Source: Candidatus Jordarchaeales archaeon
Lineage (GTDB): Archaea > Asgardarchaeota > Jordiarchaeia > Jordiarchaeales > Freyrarchaeaceae
Assembly: GCA_038889235.1 (NCBI GenBank)
Contig: JAWAHN010000001.1
Location: forward strand, 404,499-436,498
Reading direction: 5' to 3'
DNA length: 32,000 nt
How positions within the stretch are numbered: the stretch's first letter is position 1; every line of letters begins with the position of its first letter. Position numbers and translations under genes: made by a program. Below are positions 16,676 through 30,751 of the stretch, piece after piece. The notes below the pieces were generated by a model that saw only the letters and a program-made list of their open reading frames with translations, had not been told where the DNA came from and made no database searches.

Positions 16676-18519
16676 AAGGAGGATACATTGGACGAATGCT
16701 TGTGATCGACGTGAGCGATGGGAGCTACAAGGTTATAGACTGGACGACAGAGAAAAACGAGTGGCTAAAATTTGTAGGCGGAAGAGGGTTTGGAGCCAAA
16801 ATTGTTTGGGAGCAAACAGGTAAGCATACGAGCCCCTTGGGTCCAGAGAACGTGCTGGTGATGGCTGCCGGGCCGCTGACAGGGTTGCCCGTGCCCGGTC
16901 CTAGGATTTCGGTTTGCTCGCTCAGCCCGCTCACGGGAATATGGGGGGATAGCGCGGTAGGCGGGTTCGCCGGCCTCAAGCTTAAACAGTGCGGTTATGA
17001 TGCAGTAATCATCAAGGGAAGAAGGAAAAAATTCGCCTACCTGTACATAAGCGAGGACTGCGTAGAGCTCAGGGACGCCTCCCACCTTGTTGGTAAAGGC
17101 AGCATAGAGGCGCAAGAGGAGCTGAGGAAAGAGCACGGGAGCGGTGTTGCAACTTTAACAATAGGTCCCGCTGGGGAAAACCTTGTCCTCTTCGCCTGCA
17201 TAACCAGCGACTATGGGAGGCAGTCTGGCAGGACAGGTACTGGAGCGGTCATGGGGTCGAAGGGGCTTAAAGCCGTTGTTTTTGACGGAGACAGAGATGT
17301 CCCAGTGGCTGACGGAAGGGAGCTGCTCAGATTACTCGAGGAGGCTAAGGAGAGAATAATGACAGAAAATCATGAGCTCTACCGGCAGTTCAGCAAATAC
17401 GGGACAATGATGACTTTTGACTGGGCTCAAGATGTAGCTTGCCTGCCTACGAGGAATTTCCGCGAAAGCGTTTTTGACGGGGCTGAAGGAATAAACGCCA
17501 GTAGCGTTGAGGAAAAGGTTATGATGGGCAAGAGAGCGTGCTACGCGTGCCCGATATCCTGCAGGACCATTAGCGAAGTGAAACTCGATGGTGAGACTTT
17601 CTACCTCGACGGGCCCGAGTATGAAACCATGGCTCTCTTGGGCTCAAACCTTGGGATTAGCAACGTCTACGACCTTGTTGTGGCCCACTACCTTTGTGAC
17701 CACTACGGCATGGACGCCATATCAACCGGGGTAGTTGTGGGCTTTGCAATAGAGTGTGCACAGCGCGGGCTGCTGAAGCTTGACGGGTTGAAGCCTGATT
17801 GGGGAGACAGGGAGACTATTTTCAGCTTGCTTGAAAGCATTGCCTTCCGCAGGGGCATAGGAGGCATACTGGCCGAGGGAGTTAAGAAGGCCGCTGAGAT
17901 AATAGGGGGCGGCTGCGAGAACTACGCTATGCATGTTAAAGGACTTGAGCAGTCTGGGTATGAGACTAGGGCTGCTCCAGGAATGAGCCTTGCTTATGGG
18001 ACGTGCGATGTCGGAGCGCACCACAATAGGTCTACAATAATTGGCTGGGAGTCGAGAAACGACAGGCTCGGTACTGGAAGGGACAAGGTCGAGCTCCAAA
18101 TACTCCTCCAGCACCAGAGGAGCCTTTTCGACGCGCTTGGTGTTTGCAGGTTCCCGTGGTGCGAGACGAAGCTTCCATTCGAGTACTACGTGAAATATTA
18201 CAGAGCTGCAACAGGGATAGATGTAAGCGAAAGAGACTTGTTGAAGGCTTCGGAAAGAATATTCAATTTAACGAGGATGATAAGTGTCAGGCGGGGCATT
18301 TCGCGGAAAGACGACTACCCACCGAAGAGGGTTTTCAGTGAACCTCTCCCAAGCGGGCCATTTAAGGGAGTGAAGCTGGACTTAGAGAAGTACGAGCATA
18401 TGCTAGACATGTACTATGAGCTCAGGGGATGGAGCCGGGACGGAATCCCGACAAAAGAAAAATTGGAGGAGTTAGGTATACTAGAGCTCGTCGAGAAAGG
18501 GATGCAAAACTCATTCTAG
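16672..18519 (+). CDS. aor: Aldehyde:ferredoxin oxidoreductase family protein (tungstopterin)
   Basis: GGRGFG, SPLTG, IGPAGENLV, GRTGTGAVMGSKGLKAV, DGPEYET, CDHYGMDAIS, HVKGLE and YYELRGW. Confidence 0.93.
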   Translation: MKGGYIGRMLVIDVSDGSYKVIDWTTEKNEWLKFVGGRGFGAKIVWEQTGKHTSPLGPENVLVMAAGPLTGLPVPGPRISVCSLSPLTGIWGDSAVGGFAGLKLKQCGYDAVIIKGRRKKFAYLYISEDCVELRDASHLVGKGSIEAQEELRKEHGSGVATLTIGPAGENLVLFACITSDYGRQSGRTGTGAVMGSKGLKAVVFDGDRDVPVADGRELLRLLEEAKERIMTENHELYRQFSKYGTMMTFDWAQDVACLPTRNFRESVFDGAEGINASSVEEKVMMGKRACYACPISCRTISEVKLDGETFYLDGPEYETMALLGSNLGISNVYDLVVAHYLCDHYGMDAISTGVVVGFAIECAQRGLLKLDGLKPDWGDRETIFSLLESIAFRRGIGGILAEGVKKAAEIIGGGCENYAMHVKGLEQSGYETRAAPGMSLAYGTCDVGAHHNRSTIIGWESRNDRLGTGRDKVELQILLQHQRSLFDALGVCRFPWCETKLPFEYYVKYYRAATGIDVSERDLLKASERIFNLTRMISVRRGISRKDDYPPKRVFSEPLPSGPFKGVKLDLEKYEHMLDMYYELRGWSRDGIPTKEKLEELGILELVEKGMQNSF

Positions 18520-20133
18520 TTTTTTCGCTTTAAACCACGTCTCCTTTATGGGCCTCGAGAGTTCCTCTATGTAGCCTTCCAGCGTGCTGCATACGGCTAC
18601 CGTTTGCTCCTCTTTTTGTGGTATCCAGGCGAAAACCACTTCCTCCCTGTCCTTAACTGCCCCAATTATTTTTTCCTCGTCAGGGGTGAGAACTCTCAGA
18701 GCGGTATTTGGTCTAGAGGCGATCTTTCTCAGGAGGGATGGATCTCCCGAGGCTGCCATTTGAAGTGACACCCTAGGGCTCATCGACAATATGGCCTCCA
18801 CGTCTCCAGCCTCAACTCTCGGCATTACGAGCAGGAGCGAAGATTTGGCTGATTTAGCCACCTGCCTCACGTATTCCTTAACGTTGTTGTAGCCTGCGAC
18901 GAGGCCTACGCCTACTATTTCGGTGAAAGCTATGCTTTTCATAATACTTACTATTTCCTCTACTTTGCTTTTGACCGTTTTCAGCTCACCTGTAACCCGT
19001 TGGCTGACTGGTACTAGAGCCGAGGAAACCTTCTCTGATGTTTCAGAGCTGATCTTGGATACCGTGCTTAGTGCCTTTGACAGTTCATCTTCAACCTCTT
19101 TCAAAAGTCTAGCCGATGACAACTTGCCGGACTCTAGGGATTCTGAAAGCTTCTTGGAAACCATAATTCGTGCGTCTTCTAGAGCGCGTTTAATTTCCTC
19201 GGAAAGGGATGTCAGAGAGCGATCAACGTTGCTTTTTAAACCTCCCAAAAGCGACTCTACTTTCGACGCCAGGTTGTTAAGTTCCCCTTCCACCAGGCTC
19301 GACAGCGCTTGAGACATTCTCTCAAGACTGAATTTGACTTCCCCGTTAAAAGACGCGAAGTTTTTCTCCGCATCCAGCAGGGCAAGGTTTACTGTTTCGC
19401 CAATCTTTCTCTTAGCTTTCTCCGACTCTTGGGAAACCCTTCCCTTAACTTCTTCCAAGCTGTCCTGCAGGGAGGTGACCGTATCCTGCAACCTCTTCTG
19501 CAGCCCTTGAAGTTGTGCCACGACGTCTGAAATAGCTGACTGGATGACTCCAGACACCCTGCTTAGCGCTTCAAGTGAGAACGAGGACGACGAATCTACG
19601 AGTTCAAGCGCAAACTTCTCTATTGCCGACACGCTGCTCTTAAATGATGAGAACTGTGAAGAGACCAGCGCGGCAACCCTAGATATAGTTCCGCTTGCTT
19701 GCTCACCAACAGCCTTAGCCACGCTGCTGGCAACCTGTCTGCTGAGCGACGAAACTTCGCCTACTGTTGACGCGATAGACGACGAGGACGAATTTGACAT
19801 TTCTTTGATAGACGAGGAAGATGTCTCTAGCAGTGAAGAAGTAGCGGAAGATAGGGTGTTATAAAAGTCTTTCAATGCCGAGGATTCCTGTTCATAGAAG
19901 ACTGCAGTAAAACTTGACACTTTTTCCAAGAGAGATTTGACGGCTGTTTCGAGCTCGGCGACCTTGTCTTTCAACACTACTCCTAACTCGCCTCCCAGGG
20001 AGCTAGCCGAGGAGGAAACATATGCTTCAAGCTCGCTGACTTTCTCAAGGATTTCCTTCACTCGTTCATCTAACGCTCGCCTAGCTTCCTCCACCTTACT
20101 TTTCAACGCGTGAACCACTGACGCATCCGACAA
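18511..20133 (-). CDS. Long Ser-rich hendecad coiled-coil protein with a C-terminal TrmB/PLD-like alpha/beta domain
   Basis: ORF open from 20208; likely start is TTG 20133 after GGAGGGG; ~400 aa of 11-residue periodic helix, then a ~130-aa globular domain with no HKD motif. Confidence 0.75.
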   Translation of the reverse strand: MSDASVVHALKSKVEEARRALDERVKEILEKVSELEAYVSSSASSLGGELGVVLKDKVAELETAVKSLLEKVSSFTAVFYEQESSALKDFYNTLSSATSSLLETSSSSIKEMSNSSSSSIASTVGEVSSLSRQVASSVAKAVGEQASGTISRVAALVSSQFSSFKSSVSAIEKFALELVDSSSSFSLEALSRVSGVIQSAISDVVAQLQGLQKRLQDTVTSLQDSLEEVKGRVSQESEKAKRKIGETVNLALLDAEKNFASFNGEVKFSLERMSQALSSLVEGELNNLASKVESLLGGLKSNVDRSLTSLSEEIKRALEDARIMVSKKLSESLESGKLSSARLLKEVEDELSKALSTVSKISSETSEKVSSALVPVSQRVTGELKTVKSKVEEIVSIMKSIAFTEIVGVGLVAGYNNVKEYVRQVAKSAKSSLLLVMPRVEAGDVEAILSMSPRVSLQMAASGDPSLLRKIASRPNTALRVLTPDEEKIIGAVKDREEVVFAWIPQKEEQTVAVCSTLEGYIEELSRPIKETWFKAKKLE

Positions 20134-20357
20134 GAAATCCCCTCCTCTTCCCCCTTCTAGAAAGAGGTTAAGTTCAAGATAAGTTTTCCGTCGGCGCGGT
20201 ATAAACAATAAAAGTATATTTTTAAAAATCGCTAAAAAATATATTAACAGTAGTAACGTTTACTATGAATTTCCTCTTCGAGTGAGAAATTGTGTGACGC
20301 GATGAACGTAGCATTTCCTGGAAGGAGTGCTTTGAAAGTGGGCTTGGAGGAGTCAAG

Positions 20358-20873
20358 TTGAGCACGTATGTTTTCAAGGTGGTTATGGTTGGTGACCCAT
20401 CCGTTGGGAAGACTAGCCTTGTTATGAGGTATGTGAAGGGGTTCTTCGAATACGACTACAAGGCAACCGTCGGGACACAGATAATGAGCAAGGAGGTTCA
20501 GGTTAAAGGGTTAACGGTCAAGTTGATGATATGGGATATCGGTGGCCAGGAGAAGTTTAACACGTTAGCTCCGGCATATTATAAGGGTGCGGCTGGAGGA
20601 CTCGCAGTTTTTGACTTAACACGAAAAGAGACCTTTGAAAACCTGTCTAAATGGATTTCACGCTTAAGGACTTACGCAAACCCAAACGTGTCCATTGTCA
20701 TAGTTGGAAACAAGTCCGACTTGGTGGACGAAAGACAGGTCTCGCTCGAGGAGGCTATGGAGCTAGCAGAAAAAATCGGAGTCCCCTATATAGAGACGTC
20801 TGCCAAGAGCGGGAAAAACGTTATCAAGGTTTTCGAGATAATCGCTGAGAAAGTAGTAACTAAGAAAATTTAA
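20358..20873 (+). CDS. Rab-like small GTPase
   Basis: G1 GDPSVGKT, G2 YKATVG, G3 WDIGGQ, YYKGA, G4 NKSD, G5 ETSAK; no C-terminal Cys. Confidence 0.92.
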   Translation: MSTYVFKVVMVGDPSVGKTSLVMRYVKGFFEYDYKATVGTQIMSKEVQVKGLTVKLMIWDIGGQEKFNTLAPAYYKGAAGGLAVFDLTRKETFENLSKWISRLRTYANPNVSIVIVGNKSDLVDERQVSLEEAMELAEKIGVPYIETSAKSGKNVIKVFEIIAEKVVTKKI

Positions 20874-20926: not shown

Positions 20927-21382
20927 CTACTTTCTTCTGGGCTTCTGCCTTCTATCCCTTCTAGGTTTTTTAACGAAGGGCTCACCTTGACTGAAGAGGA
21001 AGCGCGGCATGCTTGGCTGCCTGTAGACATTGTTGGAGAGATTGTTGTCGGTGTTCACTTCTATTTCTTCTTCGATAATTTCCATGACGCCGTAGCGTCC
21101 GAGGTTGAGGCGCATTTGGCCCTTGTAAAGGCTGACATACCCGTTCTTTATCAGTATTGAAGATCCCGGTGACACTTCGGATATAGCGTCGTCCCACAGC
21201 GTTAATAGTATTGATCCTGTCTCGTCGCCTACCAGCGCTTCTGCGACCTTGTGTACTGAGCCGTCACGTCTCGAGACGACTTCTCGGACGGCACTAACAC
21301 TCACTATTTTAACTTTTAGGTTCACTTTCCTAGAATTAGGGTTTAACTCATTTACGGATACAAGATTGCCTTCTTCTTCCAA
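20927..21382 (-). CDS. ssb: Single OB-fold single-stranded DNA-binding protein (crenarchaeal SSB/RPA-like)
   Basis: VNLKVKIV...VAEALVGDETGSILLTLWD...IKNGYVSLYKGQMRLNLGRYG, with an Arg/Lys-rich tail. Confidence 0.85.
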   Translation of the reverse strand: MEEEGNLVSVNELNPNSRKVNLKVKIVSVSAVREVVSRRDGSVHKVAEALVGDETGSILLTLWDDAISEVSPGSSILIKNGYVSLYKGQMRLNLGRYGVMEIIEEEIEVNTDNNLSNNVYRQPSMPRFLFSQGEPFVKKPRRDRRQKPRRK

Positions 21383-21665: not shown

Positions 21666-22196
21666 TCACTTGGTTATTTTTTGAGCCAAGTTCTTGACTA
21701 TGAGTGAGGCTAGGGATGTGAAAACGTCCTCTACGCACGTGCCAGTTTTGGCCGATGACTCGAAGTAGGGTATGTTAAGTTTGCTTGCAAGCCTTGCGCC
21801 GTCTTCAAAACTTACCTTTCTTTGGGGTGAAAGGTCGACCTTGTTTCCAACGAGGATTAAAGGTATGTTACCACAGTAGCGTTTCACCTGCGCCACCCAG
21901 TCTTCAACGTTTCTAAACGACTCAGGGTTGGTCACGTCGAAGACTACTAGTGCGCCTTGCCCTCCTTTAAAGTAGTTTGGAAGCAGAGGCTTAAACTTCT
22001 CCTGCCCACCAGTGTCCCATATTGTTAGCTTCACGGAGAGGCCGTCTATGTACACTATTTTCGAGTAGAAGTTGACCCCTAATGTCGGCATATAGTTCTC
22101 TTTGAAAGAGCCTGTCGTGAACCTGAGCGTGAGACTGGTCTTACCCACCCCTCCATCGCCAACGACGAGGACTTTGAAGTGGTAATTTGGAAGCAC
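21666..22196 (-). CDS. Rab-like small GTPase
   Basis: G1 GDGGVGKT, G2 YMPTLGVNF, G3 WDTGGQ, YFKGG, G4 NKVD, G5 ESSAK; no C-terminal Cys. Confidence 0.92.
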   Translation of the reverse strand: MLPNYHFKVLVVGDGGVGKTSLTLRFTTGSFKENYMPTLGVNFYSKIVYIDGLSVKLTIWDTGGQEKFKPLLPNYFKGGQGALVVFDVTNPESFRNVEDWVAQVKRYCGNIPLILVGNKVDLSPQRKVSFEDGARLASKLNIPYFESSAKTGTCVEDVFTSLASLIVKNLAQKITK

Positions 22197-23007: not shown

Positions 23008-23805
23008 TTAAAGTGATGTTGAAGAGTTGTTTTTCGTGAGCGATTTTGCCGTAGTTTTGCAACTCGCTTTTTGTGACTTACTTAGTGTAGATTTTTGCGC
23101 GCTTCTGGTAACAGGTGCTTCGACTATCTTCCCATTCGAGAAAGAGATCTTTACTTCTATTGGGGTCTTCCCCCTTTGCCGGATCTCCATCTTGTCTTTT
23201 TCCAGGAATATCAGTGCGTTTGCAAGGTGGAGAATTGACTCTGTTTCAGCGTCTTCAGCTAATTTTCGTTCTAGTGTTGCTAGTATAACGCTGTTTGAAA
23301 GCTGTATTTTCGCTTTTAGAAAGAACATGAACCTTAACGTGGCTTTGGGGGAAGCAAGTGATATGATAGAGGAAAGCGAGTCGATCACTATGCGTATGCG
23401 CCCGAGAGAAGACAGCCTCATTATGGCATCAACTATTTTCGAGCTTAGGGCTGCTAGGTCTGTTGGCGCTGAGACATACGTCACCGTGACACTATCTTCC
23501 ACGGAGAAGTCTATCGTGGGGCGGCAAAGGTCTATTATCCTGTATGTCGGGGACGAGCTCTTATACTTGGAGAGATCTACTCCTAGGCTGGCGACTTGGG
23601 ACTCCACCTCCTCAGCGAAGTTCACTGTTGTAACGTATATGCTCCCCTCTCCAAGCCTTAATCCTTCGCAGAAAAACTCCATGGCTATTAGCTCTTTCCC
23701 TCCTAGTGGCTCGCCTATAACTATGCATAAGGAGCCCGGGTTGAACCCTCCGCCAAGAATGCGGTCTAGGAATTCTATTCCAGTTTTTAGCTTCACTCTT
23801 TCCAT
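23008..23805 (-). CDS. RAD55/KaiC-like RecA-superfamily ATPase with degenerate catalytic motifs
   Basis: KTGIEFLDRILGGG, Walker A GEPLGGKE (Glu at the T/S position), TTVN in place of the EE pair, Walker B RIVIDSLS; S/T/K-rich tail. Confidence 0.85.
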   Translation of the reverse strand: MERVKLKTGIEFLDRILGGGFNPGSLCIVIGEPLGGKELIAMEFFCEGLRLGEGSIYVTTVNFAEEVESQVASLGVDLSKYKSSSPTYRIIDLCRPTIDFSVEDSVTVTYVSAPTDLAALSSKIVDAIMRLSSLGRIRIVIDSLSSIISLASPKATLRFMFFLKAKIQLSNSVILATLERKLAEDAETESILHLANALIFLEKDKMEIRQRGKTPIEVKISFSNGKIVEAPVTRSAQKSTLSKSQKASCKTTAKSLTKNNSSTSL

Positions 23806-23827: not shown

Positions 23828-24190
23828 TTACGTCAACGCTTCCGCTACACTTTTACATGCTTCCTCAAGTGCCTTAACGAGGTTGGGGGCGGCTGTCTTT
23901 GATGAGAGCACTAGGAGGAACGCCTTGGAGCCTGCACCTATGATGGTGATTACTCCTCCCTCTATTTCTAGGGATAGGTGACGAGCTATTCCTCTCTTGA
24001 CGGTTTCAGCGGCTACTTCCGCGGCTCCAAGCATTGAGGCAGACATAGCGGCGAGCCTGCTAACGTTTATGTCGTGGGGCATGAGCGATTCAAGAACGCT
24101 CCCGTTTCTCATCGCGACGAGACAGCCTTCAACCCCCTCCAATGATTGGAGCCTCGTCAGAACCTTTTTAATCTTTTCCCTAAACTCCAC
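23828..24190 (-). CDS. Roadblock/LC7 (MglB-like) protein
   Basis: EGVEGCLVAMRNG...LAAMSASMLGAAE...LEIEGGVITIIGAG...LLVLS pattern; directly follows the GTPase gene. Confidence 0.9.
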   Translation of the reverse strand: MEFREKIKKVLTRLQSLEGVEGCLVAMRNGSVLESLMPHDINVSRLAAMSASMLGAAEVAAETVKRGIARHLSLEIEGGVITIIGAGSKAFLLVLSSKTAAPNLVKALEEACKSVAEALT

Positions 24191-24205: not shown

Positions 24206-25345
24206 CTACATAGAGATTATGTTAAGGAGTATGTCAACTAAGAGGAAAGTGTTAACTCTGTTTTTGGCACTGCATCCTACCACTGGAATAGACGGCGGAA
24301 TGCCGAGAATTGATCTAAGCTCTCCTGGAGGTATTGCCGACTCCAAGTCCTGTTTGTTCGCTGCCACAACTACCGGGGCCTTTCCTCGACACTTGTCAAA
24401 GAGCTCCCTAGCTCTTACGAAACTCGAAGTGTCCGCGCTATCAACCACTAGGATGAAGCCGACTGCCCCGCTCATCATCATGTCAAGTATTGGTTCGAAC
24501 TGGGGCTGACCCGGGGTTCCAAAGAACTCTATGAAGAATCCCTTGTAGTCTAGTGTTCCGTGATCAAGTGCCACGGTTGTCCCAGCTCGCTCGACGCTGA
24601 CGGCATCCTCAGCCAGCGCGTGAATAAGCGTGGTTTTTCCTGCATTGTACGGCCCGAGAACAACTATCTTTGGAAGGTATACTCTCAGCTCTCCAGGTGG
24701 GACTACTTTGACCAAGAAGAATAGGTCTTTCACGTCACCTACCCAGGCTGCCTTCTTTACCCTCATTTGGTTCTCTACCAGTAGTAGAGGGTCTGGTCTG
24801 ACTTCTAGAACACCGTCGAAGAAATGCTCTATTTCCTCAACGAGCTCACTGGTGTACGTCCATGAAGAGAAGAGGGCTATCAGTGTGGATGAGCCAACGG
24901 CTTTTAGAACATCGAGTAACGGTTTCACTTCGCCGCCGAGCGACTCCAGGAAAGTGTTTACTGAGTCGAGTACTAGGAGTGTTTTTTCGGTCGAGAGGTC
25001 AGATAACACTCTTTTAATTGAGCTGATGTCATAGGGGTTGACAATGTATCTTTCAAGGCTTTCCGCCCCGCTTAGCATGGAGTAAGCATCGACCATTACG
25101 AATTGGCCCTTTTGCTCGTATGCCTCGAGGTTTAAACGAGATTTCCTAGCTTGCCTTCTCACGCTTAAAGGGGGCTTATTATTCACGAAGTAAACTACGT
25201 TGAAGCCCTCCTCTAAGCCAACCTTAACGACGTGCAAACCGACTATTAGTGGGTCAAAGCTAGGTGAAATAACAAACATGTTTTTAGAGGATATTGGTAT
25301 GCCGCCAACCCTTCGGTCAAAGAGTGGGAGCTTTAGCCGCATCAA
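24206..25345 (-). CDS. Fusion of an inactive KaiC/RecA-fold domain and an MglA-like small GTPase
   Basis: N-domain LFDRRVGGIP, lost P-loop (SPSFDPL), LLVLDSVN; C-domain GPYNAGKT, TTVALDHG, GTPGQ, NKQD, SAK. Confidence 0.85.
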   Translation of the reverse strand: MMRLKLPLFDRRVGGIPISSKNMFVISPSFDPLIVGLHVVKVGLEEGFNVVYFVNNKPPLSVRRQARKSRLNLEAYEQKGQFVMVDAYSMLSGAESLERYIVNPYDISSIKRVLSDLSTEKTLLVLDSVNTFLESLGGEVKPLLDVLKAVGSSTLIALFSSWTYTSELVEEIEHFFDGVLEVRPDPLLLVENQMRVKKAAWVGDVKDLFFLVKVVPPGELRVYLPKIVVLGPYNAGKTTLIHALAEDAVSVERAGTTVALDHGTLDYKGFFIEFFGTPGQPQFEPILDMMMSGAVGFILVVDSADTSSFVRARELFDKCRGKAPVVVAANKQDLESAIPPGELRSILGIPPSIPVVGCSAKNRVNTFLLVDILLNIISM

Positions 25346-25459
25346 ACTCGCAGCCCACCAGGAGCATTATCGTGAGGGGGGCGCATAGTTGGAGGGACAT
25401 GGGCTTGCAAGTGCCTCTTACACGCGCGATCTGTTAAGCTTCCGGATTTTAGGCAGCTC

Positions 25460-26248
25460 CTAGTAGAGTATCACTATGCCGTTCTCGGTTATCGAGAAGC
25501 GTTTTTTCCCTTCGTAGTGGGGGGACCCCCTCATCTTGTATATTTCGATGTACCTGCTTCTCTTGTCTCCTTCAGGTTCCCAGTATAATATGAAGACTCC
25601 GTCAGCCATGAATTCTTCCACGCCAAACCTCGTTATGCCCGGCTTACCGTACTCGGCTTCTGTTACAAAGATAGAGGTGCACCCGTACCTTTTCAACATG
25701 CGTGATATGACGTTTAGCTCCCTTCTAACCACGCCAATGTTTCCATACTGCAGGAATAGGACGGAGATCGGGTCGAGGACTACCCTCTTGATACTACACT
25801 CTCTAACCGCTGTCTCCATAGTAGAATATAAACCATCCAACGTGAACATGTCGGGGTTAAGAGATAGGGCTTTGTCACCTATGGCGATAGCGCTAAGGTC
25901 CAGCAATACCAGCATCTGCCGCTCTATGAGGTCTTTCAGGTTCCACCTGAAATTCCTCGCATTTCTCAATATACTATCCAGGTGCTCTTCGAGTGAGACG
26001 TAAAGCCCAGGTTCACCATACTCCGCCGCGCCACGATAGAGGAACTCTAAGCAGAAAATGGACTTTCCTGCCCCAGATACACCCGATAGCAGGTAAGTAG
26101 ACCCCCTAAAGAGCCCACCCCTAACGAGCTCGTCGAACCCTCTAATCCCCGTAGGTGTCCTTTCGCCAGGAGATTCTAAAACGCGCGCCTCACGGATAAT
26201 TCTCTCCTTAAGCTCCGCCATGAACCCTGAAGAACTAGGTTTCTTCAC
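25460..26248 (-). CDS. Single-domain KaiC-like ATPase (CI-type)
   Basis: PTGIRGFDEL, Walker A GVSGAGKS, catalytic SLEE, RVVLDPIS, RFGVEEFMADGV and KMRGS; start is GTG 26248 or ATG 26221. Confidence 0.92.
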   Translation of the reverse strand: MKKPSSSGFMAELKERIIREARVLESPGERTPTGIRGFDELVRGGLFRGSTYLLSGVSGAGKSIFCLEFLYRGAAEYGEPGLYVSLEEHLDSILRNARNFRWNLKDLIERQMLVLLDLSAIAIGDKALSLNPDMFTLDGLYSTMETAVRECSIKRVVLDPISVLFLQYGNIGVVRRELNVISRMLKRYGCTSIFVTEAEYGKPGITRFGVEEFMADGVFILYWEPEGDKRSRYIEIYKMRGSPHYEGKKRFSITENGIVILY

Positions 26249-26522
26249 GCCTCTCCTCCTCCTTCAAAGGTTCTAACACGGCTATAAGCTCTTCCTCACT
26301 AGGCAACCCTATAAAACGCCAGTTCAAGCCCACTATATCTATTGTGGGTGTTGAGATCACTCCCTCCCTCACAGCTATTTCAGGATTCTTAGATATGTCG
26401 ACTTCTTCAACCTCAAGATCCAAGTTAAGCTTTTTCAGCGATGAACGCACCGTCTTAATGACCTGGTGATACTTCGGGGTGCGACTCGACTTAAAGATGA
26501 CTATCTTGTACTCTTTGCTCAT
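26235..26522 (-). CDS. Cys-less thioredoxin-fold protein, KaiB-like
   Basis: 95 aa from ATG 26522 after GGGGGA: YKIVIFKSSRTPKY...EEVDISKNPEIA...ISTPTI...RFIGLPSEEEL; contains no cysteine. Confidence 0.75.
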   Translation of the reverse strand: MSKEYKIVIFKSSRTPKYHQVIKTVRSSLKKLNLDLEVEEVDISKNPEIAVREGVISTPTIDIVGLNWRFIGLPSEEELIAVLEPLKEEERREET

Positions 26523-26619
26523 TATATTCCCCCGGGAAGAATAAACAATACTTTTGAATATAAAAATAATTATATCGATTCCTTGGGTGTCTGTTTGCTT
26601 CGCGAAGGGGGGAGTATTG

Positions 26620-27654
26620 TTGAGTGTGAAGGATCCTTGCATTAGAAAAGGAGTTCTTCAAGAGGAGCTTGGTGGTGGTTGGGCTAGGTGTCTTACTTGT
26701 ATGAGGATGTGTAAGATTCCCGAGGGGGGTGTCGGGTTCTGTAAGACGAGGAAGAACATTTCGGGCGAGATTTACACGCTCATTTATGGCGATATTTCAT
26801 CTATGAGCGCTAACCCTATAGAGAAAAAGCCGTTGTTCCACTTTTTTCCGGGTTCTAAGGCGCTCACTGTTGGTTCTTGGATGTGTAATTTTACTTGCCC
26901 GTGGTGCCAGAACTGGGAGATTAGCAAGTTTCCTCCAGACGAGAAGAGACGCAACTACGTGAGCCCGGAGGACTTCATCAGGATAGCTAAGGTTGAGAAA
27001 TGTGAAGGGACTTCCATATCGTTTAACGAGCCTACGTTAATGCTGGAATACTCCCTAGACGTTTTCAGGCTTGCGAAGAAGAACGGGCTCTATAACACTT
27101 ACGTGACAAATGGTTACATGACGCCTGAGGCGCTACGCGTCTTGGTGGAGTCGGGTCTCGACGCCATGAACGTCGATGTTAAGGGATGTGAAGAAGCTGT
27201 CAGAAAGTACTGCGGAGCCGACGTTGAACATGTCTGGAGGAACATTAAGGATGCGTGGAGGATGGGGGTCTGGGTTGAAATAACGACACTCGTCATTCCT
27301 GGAGTGAACGATGACGAAGACTGCTTGAGAAGCATAGCTTGCAGGATACGCGAAATAGACAGCGACATTCCTTGGCATGTTACAAGGTTTCACCCGGACT
27401 ACGAAATGCTGGATAGGCCGCCAACACCCGTCAAAACACTTGAGAGGGCGAGGATGATAGGCATAGAGGAGGGGTTAAAGTTTGTTTACGTGGGAAACGT
27501 ACCCGGGCACAAGTGGGAGAATACGTACTGTCCGTCGTGCGGCGAACTGCTAATTGAGAGGTACATTTTTTCCATAACAAAGGTGAACGTTGAGGGGGAT
27601 AGGTGCCCAAGTTGCGGCGAAAGGATACCTATAGTTGGAAAGGTGAAGAAGTAG
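26620..27654 (+). CDS. AmmeMemoRadiSam system radical SAM enzyme
   Basis: RCLTCMRMC...GFCKTR, NPIEKKPLFHFFPG, CNFTCPWCQN (CxxxCxxC), SFNEPT, WHVTRFHPDY and C-terminal CPSC motifs; probable TTG/GTG start at 26617-26626. Confidence 0.92.
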   Translation: MSVKDPCIRKGVLQEELGGGWARCLTCMRMCKIPEGGVGFCKTRKNISGEIYTLIYGDISSMSANPIEKKPLFHFFPGSKALTVGSWMCNFTCPWCQNWEISKFPPDEKRRNYVSPEDFIRIAKVEKCEGTSISFNEPTLMLEYSLDVFRLAKKNGLYNTYVTNGYMTPEALRVLVESGLDAMNVDVKGCEEAVRKYCGADVEHVWRNIKDAWRMGVWVEITTLVIPGVNDDEDCLRSIACRIREIDSDIPWHVTRFHPDYEMLDRPPTPVKTLERARMIGIEEGLKFVYVGNVPGHKWENTYCPSCGELLIERYIFSITKVNVEGDRCPSCGERIPIVGKVKK

Positions 27655-27666
27655 ATTAGGTTCTGA

Positions 27667-27713
27667 GTTAAGTAGGAATACATGGTGAATTGTTACTTTC
27701 ATTCCTACTTAAC
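27667..27713. repeat. Perfect 13-bp inverted repeat at the tnpB 3' end (right-end / omegaRNA stem)
   Basis: GTTAAGTAGGAAT (27667-27679) and ATTCCTACTTAAC (27701-27713) with a 21-nt loop. Confidence 0.85.
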
Positions 27714-28823
27714 CCTTCCCTCTCGATTAACTCATTGAGGGCTCTTTGGGGGAACCCTGCTCCCCGCATCTGAAGGTTTAATACCGCTACAACGTCTCTA
27801 TCCATTGTCAATCCGCATTTTTCGCATCGCATTATCCTGCCCCCATAGGAAGCCATGCTTCCTGAACACAGGGGGCAGACCTTGGAGGAGTTTTTAGGAT
27901 CAACATATTTTACTGGTAGGTTAAGCCATTTAAGCTTGTATTCGAGCATGAACTGAAATGCCCTTGCGTTCCACTTTGATAGCTTGCGGTTCATTTTCTT
28001 TGAGCGGTTTAGAATTCGCCTCTTTACGCCTTTCAGGTTTTCAAGTATTGCTCCGCAGCTCTTTTCTTTCAGCTCCTTCGCTATGCTTGCGGTTAGCTTA
28101 TGCATGAAGTCCCTTGCCTTATTCCTCTCACACTTAGAATACTTCTTGAGGAGCATCCTTGATGTATTAGGCTTAATCTTAGATAGCTTTTGTATCCTTT
28201 GCCGCCTGACTTCATAGGCTCTGTGGATGTGATAGAGTCCTCTTAAGTCATAGCGCCTAATCTCGCCATCTATGAGTGCCGTTACGTTTGTCAGGTTCAC
28301 ATCAAAAGAAGCCCACCTATCCGCTTTAGGCTCAACGTCCCTCTTAACCGTAACTATGAGCTCCTTCTCGGTTAGGATTAAACCTCCAACTCTGTCGAAG
28401 TCTTTCGGAATCCATGAATACTTATTCAAGTCAACCTCAAGATACCGCTTATTGGGCTCTATGCTTATCTTTAGTATGCTGTTTCTGAAGCTGAAGAGCG
28501 TGCTCTTAATGTAGACTGTTCTTCTGGTTATCTCAGGCTTACTTTCAGCTCTCCCTCTGTTGTAGAGCGTTATCCAGCCCTTAACAAGCCCTATGACTGA
28601 GTTTATTGCTGAATCGACATAGTGCTTTGAAAACCTCCAGTCTTTCAGCAGCTCACCTCTAAGCTTCCTCCTATCCTCCCTACTGAGGGTTAGACGGGCT
28701 CTATTAGAAAACCTTACATGGGCGAAAATATGCTCCAAGGCTCTCTGCTTAACCTTGAAGTATTCTTCGATTAAATCCCCCTGGAGTTCCTACTGGGATT
28801 CTGTAGCTCTTAACTGCCTCCAC
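27668..28823 (-). pseudogene. tnpB: TnpB RNA-guided endonuclease with a 5' frameshift
   Basis: RuvC-I ASFDVN, RuvC-II ILENL, Zn finger CPLC/CEKC, RuvC-III DRDVVAVLNL; the N-terminus (V/M)EAVKSYRIPV from GTG 28823 is out of frame with DLIEEYFKVKQRALE across a G5 run (28777-28781). Confidence 0.82.
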
Positions 28824-29129: not shown

Positions 29130-29963
29130 TTGTGGGTTTGTAATAAAAGGGAACGATTTTTCAGTTGGTGGGATGCTGTTTTGAGTCAGGAAGTGGTAGC
29201 TTCAGGAGATTACGTCTTAGTCGTTCTCGACGAGAAGAGGAAGTGGCTTGTTAGGGTCGTGGAGGGGGAAACACTCCACACACATAAAGGGGTTGTAAAC
29301 ATAGGTGCATTGATAGGCATGCCTTACGGCTGCGCAGTTAGAAGCAGTAAGGGGGAGAAATTCTACATTGTAAAGCCCACGCTGGCGGACTTCGCCCTGA
29401 AAGCGAAGAGGGCGACACAGATAATCTATCCAAAGGACCTAGGGTTCATTTTGCTGAACTTGGCTGTGGGGCGGGGGAGCAGAGTGGTTGAGGCTGGTAC
29501 TGGAAGCGGGGTTCTCACAGGGGTTTTGGCGAGCTGGGTTATGCCTGAAGGGAGAGTTTACAGTTACGAGGTAAGGGAGGAGTTCTTAAAGGTGGCTAAA
29601 AAGAACTTGGAGCGCATGGGGGTTGCAGAGTATGTTGAACTTAAGAACAAGGACATACTTGAAGGGATAGAAGAAAAGGAAGTCGACGCGGTGGTACTCG
29701 ACATGGCGACGCCATGGCTAGTCGTACCCTACGCTTACGAGGCGCTTAAAGCCGGGAGGGTCATGGCTTCGTTCAGTCCGACGATAGAGCAGGTCCAGAA
29801 AACGGTGTCTGAAATGGAAAAAGTCGGATTCGTAGATATACACACATACGAGTGCCTATTGAGAGAAATAATAGTTAAAGAGGGTAGGACTAGGCCTGAA
29901 TCCTTTATGGTGGGACACACCGGGTATGTAACCTTCGGACGCAAGGTTATCAGGGAAGCTTAG
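29130..29963 (+). CDS. trmI: tRNA (adenine-N1)-methyltransferase (TrmI/Gcd14)
   Basis: HTHKG, RATQIIYPKD, VVEAGTGSG, YSYEVREEF, VVLDMATPW, FSPTIEQV and HTGYVTFGRK; true start is probably a few codons downstream. Confidence 0.93.
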   Translation: MWVCNKRERFFSWWDAVLSQEVVASGDYVLVVLDEKRKWLVRVVEGETLHTHKGVVNIGALIGMPYGCAVRSSKGEKFYIVKPTLADFALKAKRATQIIYPKDLGFILLNLAVGRGSRVVEAGTGSGVLTGVLASWVMPEGRVYSYEVREEFLKVAKKNLERMGVAEYVELKNKDILEGIEEKEVDAVVLDMATPWLVVPYAYEALKAGRVMASFSPTIEQVQKTVSEMEKVGFVDIHTYECLLREIIVKEGRTRPESFMVGHTGYVTFGRKVIREA

Positions 29964-30751
29964 CCTAGGAGCTTCCCCACCATCTCCTTTAACTTGGAGA
30001 CCACTTTGTCCCGTTTCTCAGCTAGCCTTGAACCATAAGATATGACTAGGTCTTTTCCATCTATTGTGACCTTGGCTAGGAGACCTTCTGGAGATTCAAA
30101 CGTGAAAAATGGTTTTCCCTCTTCTACTTTGCAGCTAACGAGAAGCTCGGGAAACTCCTCCGAGAGCAGGGTGAACAATAACCCGAGCTTGGCTTTACCT
30201 ATCAGCTCGGGTTCTACTTCAGTTGGCTTCGCTTCAACGATTTTTTCGACCTCAGGTTGGGGTGGTAGTGTCGGAGCTTCCCTAACAAGTTGGGCCTGCG
30301 GAGTCCTAGCAGTTACTTCAGCCTTAGTAGGGGGCGGGGCGGGTATTTCAGCACTTGGCGGAGGCGACTCAACGACTGCTTCAACGAGCACCTTGTCTTT
30401 GGCTACGTAGTGCCTTTTAAAGATGGCATTGAGGGCGTCAAATTTCTCTTTAACTTCGGGCTCGGAGAGCTTGGACTCGTCTATTTCAACCAGTTCTTTC
30501 AAATTCCGTCCCACGTTTAGTTTACCGTACGAAAAACCACCTTTCATAACAGATTGAGCAATTCTTGCGGCGGCTCTCTTATCGACCATGCTTCTGTTCT
30601 TTCCCATCCACAAGTAGAGTCGGCTGTCCACTTCGTCTATAAGTAGAATTAGCGAGTCGCTATTTATTGCGTCTTGGCTGAAGGGAATTGGTGCTTTATC
30701 ACCTGACTCAACCTTAACCATAAGCATATATTTAGGCACGGAAGCAGACAC
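29960..30751 (-). CDS. Gelsolin-like domain protein with a Pro-rich linker and an unknown C-terminal domain
   Basis: NSDSLILLIDEVDSRLYLWMGKNRSMVDKRAAARIAQSV matches the gelsolin repeat pattern (S..fIlD....iyvW.Gk.....ek..A...A). Confidence 0.68.
   Translation of the reverse strand: MSASVPKYMLMVKVESGDKAPIPFSQDAINSDSLILLIDEVDSRLYLWMGKNRSMVDKRAAARIAQSVMKGGFSYGKLNVGRNLKELVEIDESKLSEPEVKEKFDALNAIFKRHYVAKDKVLVEAVVESPPPSAEIPAPPPTKAEVTARTPQAQLVREAPTLPPQPEVEKIVEAKPTEVEPELIGKAKLGLLFTLLSEEFPELLVSCKVEEGKPFFTFESPEGLLAKVTIDGKDLVISYGSRLAEKRDKVVSKLKEMVGKLLG

Follow-up and report, generated by a model that had tools for sequence, protein, structure and literature searches.

A cysteine-free thioredoxin-fold protein encoded beside a single-domain KaiC in Asgard archaea, a candidate adaptor of the KaiC ring

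The C-terminal half of KaiB refolds, with three prolines, conserved in 97% of KaiBs, setting a slow switch; the ground-state fold is unique to KaiB, and KaiB has been postulated to derive from a duplicated thioredoxin-like protein that occupied the fold-switched state only (PMC11185700). In the window analyzed here, a 32,000-nt stretch from an Asgard genome of the order that includes Freyrarchaeum guaymaensis, Freyarchaeum deiterrae, and the Jordarchaeaceae, a small thioredoxin-like gene lies directly upstream of a kaiC gene, and the initial annotation proposed that its product is a constitutively fold-switched KaiB analogue that arose from an archaeal thioredoxin and is relevant to the origin of Kai timers. 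The locus raises the question of whether this protein is a thioredoxin or a KaiB, and of what it does for the adjacent ATPase. With slightly better than even confidence, we regard it as a dedicated non-redox adaptor of the adjacent KaiC ring, permanently in the thioredoxin fold, that would bind the KaiC B-loop via its old substrate face. It would be a candidate named regulator for one of the many uncharacterised archaeal single-domain KaiCs.

The operon and its transcription

The operon consists of five closely spaced minus-strand genes. The first (26235–26522) encodes the Cys-free thioredoxin-fold protein of 95 aa, with a TATA-like AT run 5' of it (26557–26566, minus strand) as its putative promoter. 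The second (25460–26248) encodes a single-domain KaiC-family ATPase of 262 aa; its start is GTG, preceded by a GGAGG run, and overlaps the stop of the thioredoxin-like gene by 14 nt. The third (24206–25345) encodes an inactive KaiC-like domain lacking Walker A, fused to a small GTPase (GPYNAGKT, TTVALDHG, NKQD) that is MglA-like by these motifs. The last two encode a Roadblock/LC7 (MglB-like) protein, a candidate GTPase regulator (23828–24190; PF03259, 9e-12), and a second degenerate KaiC-like protein with the P-loop GEPLGGKE and neither an EE pair nor KxRG (23008–23805). Among the KaiC-like domains of the operon, Walker A, the EE pair, and KxRG are present only in the first KaiC, the sole catalytically intact one. 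The gene order is the same in relatives from both families of the order, and the fusion gene is found in all 11 genomes. A full-text literature search, with Makarova 2017 (mBio) outside its reach, found no account of an Asgard thioredoxin-KaiC-GTPase-Roadblock operon.

In one sediment metatranscriptome, an RNA-library contig of 1542 nt (24989–26530, ~97% identity, depth 30) covers the thioredoxin-like gene, kaiC, and the start of the fusion gene. Its upstream end, 26530, precedes the ATG by 8 nt and follows the TATA-like run by ~30 nt; the upstream intergenic bin in the same metatranscriptome has no RNA coverage, and the divergent gene has a depth of 3–5. The contig fits co-transcription of the thioredoxin-like gene and kaiC, although a contig across genes is not proof of a single transcript. 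Three raw-read RNA runs gave 0, 0, and 6 reads, too few to serve as a test. Comparison with three genus-level relatives revealed purifying selection on the 95-aa gene (dN of 0.13–0.18 against dS of 1.5–2.5), and this, together with the coverage by the RNA contig, indicate that the ORF is a real gene. A longer start at 26642 was ruled out, because the orthologues begin at the equivalent of 26522, the RNA contig reaches no further than 26530, and the longer frame would overlap the start of the divergent gene.

Several other genes surround the operon. Just downstream, two Rab-like small GTPases (20358–20873, plus strand, and 21666–22196, minus strand) flank an SSB-like OB-fold gene (20927–21382), an arrangement that is syntenic in relatives, and 18511–20208 (minus strand) encodes a long coiled-coil protein (565 aa) whose C-terminal domain is small and globular. 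A TRAPP/V4R-like gene follows the operon in Freyrarchaeum (L001:10483–10995), and the window's genome carries two tandem homologues on another contig (C3:166612–167672). Divergent from the operon is an AmmeMemoRadiSam-type radical SAM gene (26614–27654, plus strand), syntenic in family f1 and not seen in the f2 loci. An ORF resembling IS200/IS605 TnpB by eye (27668–28738, minus strand; RuvC motifs, zinc ribbon) is not called at this place in the relatives L001 and L007, and 29960–30751 (minus strand) encodes a protein of 263 aa that weakly matches a gelsolin repeat (E 0.001).

Relation of the protein to thioredoxins and KaiB

The initial annotation described a redox-dead protein with TPKY in place of CxxC, and this description is borne out, as are all the motifs that it quoted for the protein and for KaiC. 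The translation contains zero Cys, and alignment with CxxC homologues places T15-P16-K17-Y18 exactly in the CxxC columns, with xRTPxY replacing CxxC and with the cis-Pro position (P59) and the GxP loop retained; P59, G72, and P74 are invariant in this alignment. Across 16 orthologues down to 54% identity, the loops of the thioredoxin binding face are invariant (R14-T15-P16-Y18, T58-P59-T60, and W68-R69-F70-G72-P74). These residues lie on what was the substrate-binding face of the thioredoxin, in keeping with a retained role in protein binding. The host is a hot-spring Asgard archaeon, and the protein is probably heat-stable.

Automatic annotation assigns the orthologues to either the thioredoxin or the KaiB family. 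When profiles of both families were compared, the 95-aa protein matched Thioredoxin_3 (PF13192) with 29.4 bits (cut-off 24.8), whereas its match to KaiB (PF07689) was sub-threshold, with 19.6 bits against a cut-off of 27. The top NCBIfam match is the MJ0307 thioredoxin family TIGR00411 (36.5, below its cut-off of 92.75), and the KaiB model TIGR02654 scores 15 against a cut-off of 145. By sequence, MTH807 and MJ0307 (E of 9e-9 and 1.2e-8) are the closest solved relatives, with KaiBs at E 0.01–0.03. The protein would descend, in the mechanism that we propose, from a small archaeal thioredoxin of the MJ0307/MTH807 type.

The likeness to KaiB is confined to the N-terminal half. The profile-profile match to KaiB (probability 96.5) is limited to residues 3–61, in which RTP aligns with KaiB G[NRQ]TP. 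Scored with a KaiB matrix, the family's N-half has a mean of 50 (window protein 51), compared with 34 for KaiC-linked CxxC proteins (maximum 48, reached in Thorarchaeota), 20 for other thioredoxins, and 98 for held-out KaiBs (minimum 44). The Thorarchaeota CxxC proteins even exceed the Pfam KaiB cut-off, unlike the window's protein. These scores indicate that the RTP likeness is real but small, being one change from CP, and that the other proposed KaiB hallmarks, DISKNPEIA and ISTPT, are mostly generic features of small thioredoxins, on which CxxC proteins score nearly as well. The C-half scores −6 in the window protein and −7 on average in the family, against a KaiB mean of 54 and minimum of 21. 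Only the first of the three switch prolines (P58, P65, and P67 in Rhodobacter sphaeroides) is present, as P59 at the thioredoxin cis-Pro position; the two additional prolines and the GDL motif are missing, and KaiB R-x-I-I-G-D-L reads WRFIGLP. Judged by sequence, the fold-switching half of KaiB has no counterpart here, and the 95-aa protein is not a KaiB.

Structure prediction led in the same direction. AlphaFold2 (AF2), given 16 orthologues with no thioredoxins in the alignment, predicted a strand-strand-helix C-half (pLDDT 81.8), that is, the fold-switched/thioredoxin topology. The model is about as close to fold-switched KaiB (8FWJ_M: Z 10.0, RMSD 2.2 Å, 81 aligned) as to thioredoxins, and no ground-state KaiB is among the 50 structure matches listed for it. 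In a matched set-up with a 16-row alignment, a control cyanobacterial KaiB was modeled in the helix-helix-strand ground state (pLDDT 61), with a TM score of 0.72 to 2QKE/1WWJ against 0.46 to fold-switched KaiB, the proteins in this control being near-identical to solved ones. A model showing the thioredoxin state alone cannot exclude a minor second state. The topology that the initial annotation expected was therefore the one predicted; on whether the protein is an analogue or a homologue of KaiB, the trees described below lean to shared ancestry and reject neither.

The protein could alternatively be a highly diverged true KaiB, still fold-switching, that imposes a slow hourglass-like delay on the ring. 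The correspondence of RTP to G[NRQ]TP and the profile match over residues 3–61 would suit this reading, as would one orthologue that scores 27.1 on PF07689 (cut-off 27) and carries the NCBI name 'KaiB family', and one tree in which KaiB attaches beside the 95-aa family. We nonetheless consider it very improbable, given that two of the three switch prolines and GDL are missing, that AF2 yields the thioredoxin state only whereas the KaiB control yields the ground state, that the protein falls outside the KaiB clade, and that the 95% complete genome has no CII ring, phosphosite pair, or KaiA.

The putative KaiC partner and the predicted complex

Gene coupling argues for a partnership between the adaptor candidate and the active KaiC. 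Among 400 Asgard genomes searched, a strong match to the 95-aa protein was found in all 11 genomes of the order; all 11 genes are CxxC-free and abut or overlap kaiC, in agreement with the initial placement of the gene directly upstream of kaiC. All 26 family clusters carry xRTPxY and none carries CxxC. The next 19 best matches (Thorarchaeota, Atabeyarchaeia, and others) keep CAFC or CGFC and likewise lie directly upstream of a single-domain kaiC. The pattern that would have refuted the initial annotation, with orthologues mostly retaining CxxC and lying away from kaiC, was thus not the one observed. The best 30 phylum-wide homologues, from at least six families, are all directly upstream of an active kaiC, as are three further CxxC-free lineages; two CxxC-free genes were found to precede a two-domain KaiC. 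R14, D62, and R69 are common to the CxxC-free archaeal forms. In one lineage, CxxC-free and CxxC copies stand in tandem before kaiC (three contigs).

Several loci show further arrangements. The tandem genes precede a KaiC and a degenerate KaiC (L137:5119–6545 in G397, L238:4001–6065, and L239:4001–6195). CxxC-free genes with an xRSP motif lie directly upstream of a two-domain KaiC of 497 aa (L042:3196–4967, L045:5001–7065, and L240:815–3185); one of these proteins has an N-terminal extension resembling a winged helix, the second KaiC domain ends in KLSLV, and in L240 a V4R gene precedes. True KaiBs (L048–L057), mostly encoded beside two-domain KaiCs, are present in three other Asgard families (f17, f19, and f20) and form a group distinct from the 95-aa family; several of these genes have lost conserved KaiB residues. 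At L226:940–3419, two KaiB-like domains, both CxxC-free and with GLP loops of the thioredoxin type, make up a 203-aa tandem that is convergent with a KaiB-KaiC pair and is another possible intermediate. No thioredoxin-KaiC fusion was seen: the 660–680-aa fusions of family f13 (L134:3472–5508 and L135:3459–5444), which contain an internal CxxC small-thioredoxin domain and have a similar 502-aa frame in the window's genome (L099), carry no KaiC domain. A search for longer KaiCs gave multi-domain KaiCs with no thioredoxin or KaiB Pfam among the domains listed, which is weak evidence, and an ESM Atlas search returned only generic thioredoxin clusters.

Analysis of the partner KaiC indicated an intact ATPase, with Walker A GVSGAGKS, an EE pair, KMRG, and ITRFGVEEF. 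Its solved matches are led by CI domains (E 1e-50), ahead of PH0186 (1e-39) and PH0284 (9e-36). KaiB and SasA bind the end of the CI B-loop via F122/D123 (10.1101/2020.06.17.158394), and the KaiB-CI interface involves the fold-switched C-half of KaiB and Q154/Y155 of CI (PMC6378743). The window's KaiC has a 21-aa B-loop region ending in FTLDG, and its QY matches Q154/Y155 of Thermosynechococcus elongatus CI; in all six window-family KaiCs these positions are kept as QY or QF and the loop-end Phe is kept, with T, A, or N at the equivalent of D123. The loop-end motif [FY]xLx[GAP] is found in 6/6 window-family KaiCs, 12/12 other Asgard-type thioredoxin-linked KaiCs, and 23/25 KaiB-linked CI domains, and in none of 32 thioredoxin-less KaiCs, two paralogues from the same genome, and ten CII domains; it is also lacking in the operon's two dead KaiC domains. 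The definition of the motif followed inspection of the data, and these counts represent one to three independent contrasts, with which an independent-contrast test against the partner is without power. One Hydrothermarchaeota KaiC with a thioredoxin neighbor has the motif as well (L177:3081–4103; loop end FELDG plus QY). There the CxxC thioredoxin is immediately downstream, the KaiC lies outside the partnered group in the tree, and the adjacency may be chance, because the genome has ~17 small thioredoxin-like matches.

Three other candidate marks of the partner were rejected. Most single-domain archaeal KaiCs that have no thioredoxin, two paralogues from the window's genome among them, contain GVEE[FY]; KMRGS is present in cyanobacterial CII too; and B-loops of 23–24 aa occur in KaiCs without a thioredoxin neighbor. 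RFGVEEF and KMRGS, which the initial annotation read as CI-like, are therefore not specific to CI, and the end of the B-loop is a better mark.

A model of the thioredoxin-like protein with KaiC scored 0.58 against 0.02 for the best control, without giving an interface; its runs share at least 91% of contacts and the partner pLDDT is at least 84, and the verdict is weak. Of 80 solved complexes, 58 passed the score mark, as did 2 of 110 mismatched pairs; in the range up to 0.60, the passes comprise only seven of the solved complexes and both mismatches. The score may also reflect memory of solved KaiB-CI structures. The model thus adds modestly to a binding to KaiC that is already likely from gene coupling; overall, we consider this weakly predicted binding fairly likely and, somewhat less firmly, the B-loop its probable site. 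Contact would be made by the CxxC-equivalent, cis-Pro, and GxP loops, as in fold-switched KaiB and the SasA N-domain.

Two alternatives bear on this partnership. A redox-inactive thioredoxin could serve as a chaperone or assembly factor, or do an unrelated job, and be merely co-transcribed with kaiC. Cys-less thioredoxin domains with chaperone roles are common, and the best sequence and structure matches of the 95-aa protein are plain thioredoxins, but the phylum-wide position of the homologues, including the three further CxxC-free lineages, directly upstream of active kaiC and the fall of the complex score to ≤0.02 when either chain is replaced make this quite improbable. The main partner could instead be another operon product (the dead-KaiC::GTPase fusion, the degenerate KaiC, or Roadblock), or the active KaiC could be bound away from the B-loop. 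Within the order the operon is kept together as a unit, the complex model gave no interface, and the C-half is unlike that of KaiB; yet across Asgards the thioredoxin-type gene stays by the active KaiC while the GTPase context varies, with a Rag-like GTPase in Atabeyarchaeia, none recognised beside the tandem loci, and a two-domain KaiC in others, and both dead KaiC domains have lost the loop-end motif. We judge this alternative unlikely, though less so than the chaperone role. In the Atabeyarchaeia-type locus (L138:2978–4711), a CxxC thioredoxin-KaiC pair is followed by a Gtr1/RagA-like GTPase.

Against the adaptor reading itself stand the complex score in the weak band, perhaps a memory of KaiB-CI structures; a C-half, the KaiC-contacting part in KaiB, without sequence likeness to KaiB; the T/A/N at the D123 equivalent and the long B-loops in thioredoxin-less KaiCs too; and the operon's two other KaiC-like domains, which could be the partner. 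Even so, the thioredoxin-fold/KaiC partnership is conserved here and probably works like fold-switched KaiB or the SasA N-domain.

KaiB of R. sphaeroides binds ADP-state CI whatever its phosphorylation and raises CI hydrolysis threefold (10.1101/2022.11.28.518275), so that a version unable to switch, placed on one ring, would read the ATP/ADP state quickly and not act as a delay element. By this analogy, the pair may read the ATP/ADP ratio through selective binding to the post-hydrolysis ring, which we regard as quite possible, if short of an even chance. Gene order hints at output via the dead-KaiC::GTPase fusion and Roadblock; this route is doubtful, and it could connect KaiC with a switch based on a small GTPase in the lineage nearest to eukaryotes. 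Nothing points to a timer. The single active 262-aa domain has EE at the phosphosite, with no CII ring and no Ser/Thr phosphosite pair, and no PF07688 (KaiA) match was found in the 95% complete genome, while a Synechococcus elongatus control matched. A clock is unlikely because there is no phosphosite ring and no KaiA, and an ATP/ADP-GTPase switch lacking KaiB's slow refolding delay and a phosphorylation ring would not be one.

Origin and comparison with known systems

In the tree without the CxxC columns, a KaiB clade (100/100, 19 rows) excludes the 95-aa family and attaches beside it, and KaiB plus this family are split from all other thioredoxin-type rows at 85/96. When KaiB is left out, a split at 81/85 separates the CxxC-free archaeal forms, together with a single CxxC row, from the remaining CxxC forms. 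Rooting the KaiC tree on CII brings all 32 domains that are partnered with a thioredoxin or KaiB into one group (88/81), which also takes in a long branch without a partner; the window's KaiC is inside this group, outside the KaiB-CI clade (100/100; alternative p-AU 0.25), and sister (99/96) to the KaiC of the tandem lineage (loci L137, L238, and L239). AU tests left all alternative topologies unrejected (p-AU 0.05–0.49): 0.050 for the 95-aa family with the Asgard CxxC-KaiC thioredoxins, 0.055 for KaiB with the same thioredoxins, 0.41 for all CxxC-free archaeal rows together, and 0.17 for the 95-aa family with all CxxC rows. The trees rest on 89-column alignments with KaiB as a long branch and a KaiC sample chosen by similarity to the query; the careful thioredoxin tree was built without 39 of the 91 rows, for the most part near-duplicates or long branches, and its sampling did not extend to SasA. 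The trees fit both a common origin of the partnership and the view that the window gene is the CxxC-free member of a pair of duplicates, and they reject no alternative. Because of the short alignments, the long KaiB branch, the similarity-chosen sample, and the unrejected alternatives, no order of events can be claimed.

A more speculative reading, which we think unlikely as it stands, is that the pair survives as a sister lineage to KaiB-KaiC(CI), in the form of a CxxC-free proto-KaiB that does not switch fold on a single-ring KaiC, and that Asgard loci preserve the series to KaiB. The series would run from a CxxC thioredoxin beside KaiC through tandem duplication to a CxxC-free partner only and then to a CxxC-free partner with a two-domain KaiC, and the gain of two prolines would yield fold-switching KaiB, the path proposed in PMC11185700. 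The locus would offer a natural protein with the properties postulated for a proto-KaiB, tied to a one-ring KaiC, with CxxC and tandem relatives at the same locus. As a two-gene system, it allows tests of whether a plain thioredoxin fold reads the nucleotide state of KaiC, whether the cysteines matter, and whether prolines create switching; the tandem lineage is the best system for comparing CxxC-free and CxxC partner types.

With fold-switched KaiB on KaiC CI (PF07689; 5JWO, 5JWQ, and 8FWJ), and with the FS-locked Legionella KaiB (4KUN) and KaiB-TV-4 (8UBH), the 95-aa protein shares the absence of CxxC, TP in the CxxC-equivalent loop, the thioredoxin topology, the cis-Pro position, N-half profile similarity, and a gene directly upstream of kaiC; its partner KaiC resembles KaiB-bound CI in the loop-end Phe and Q-Y. 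Unlike KaiB, it has a thioredoxin-type C-half (short hairpin, FIGLP) without the second and third prolines or GDL, no predicted ground state, a position outside the KaiB clade, and a one-domain partner, whereas surveys found KaiB only with full-length KaiC (PMC5520375). In length and topology it equals the small archaeal thioredoxins MJ0307 and MTH807 (TIGR00411, PF13192; 1FO5 and 1NHO), with the Pro of CPxC, cis-Pro, and GxP kept; it differs from them in the loss of both Cys, the gain of invariant R14, D62, W68, and R69, and its fixation beside kaiC. The thioredoxin-like domain at the SasA N terminus (1T4Y, 6X61) is likewise a non-switching, non-redox thioredoxin fold, which in SasA binds the CI B-loop (10.1101/2020.06.17.158394); the 95-aa model matches it with Z 9.3 and RMSD 4.6 Å over 93 aligned residues, but the 95-aa protein is archaeal, stands alone without a kinase, and has 12% sequence identity to it.

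The CxxC thioredoxin-KaiC operons of Thorarchaeota, Atabeyarchaeia, and related Asgards have the same gene order, coupling, and KaiC loop region (21–22 aa); they retain CAFC or CGFC, however, and the CxxC-free proteins group apart from theirs. The two forms look like paralogues, since one lineage carries both in tandem. The partner KaiC, with a single ring and no phosphosite pair, is like the archaeal single-domain KaiC signaling ATPases PH0186 and PH0284. The GTPase and Roadblock genes of the operon resemble MglA-MglB and conservon-type GTPase-Roadblock switches, in which a small GTPase with the TTVALD motif lies beside a Roadblock protein; unlike in those systems, the GTPase here is joined to a dead KaiC domain, and ahead of it comes an active KaiC that has a thioredoxin-fold partner.
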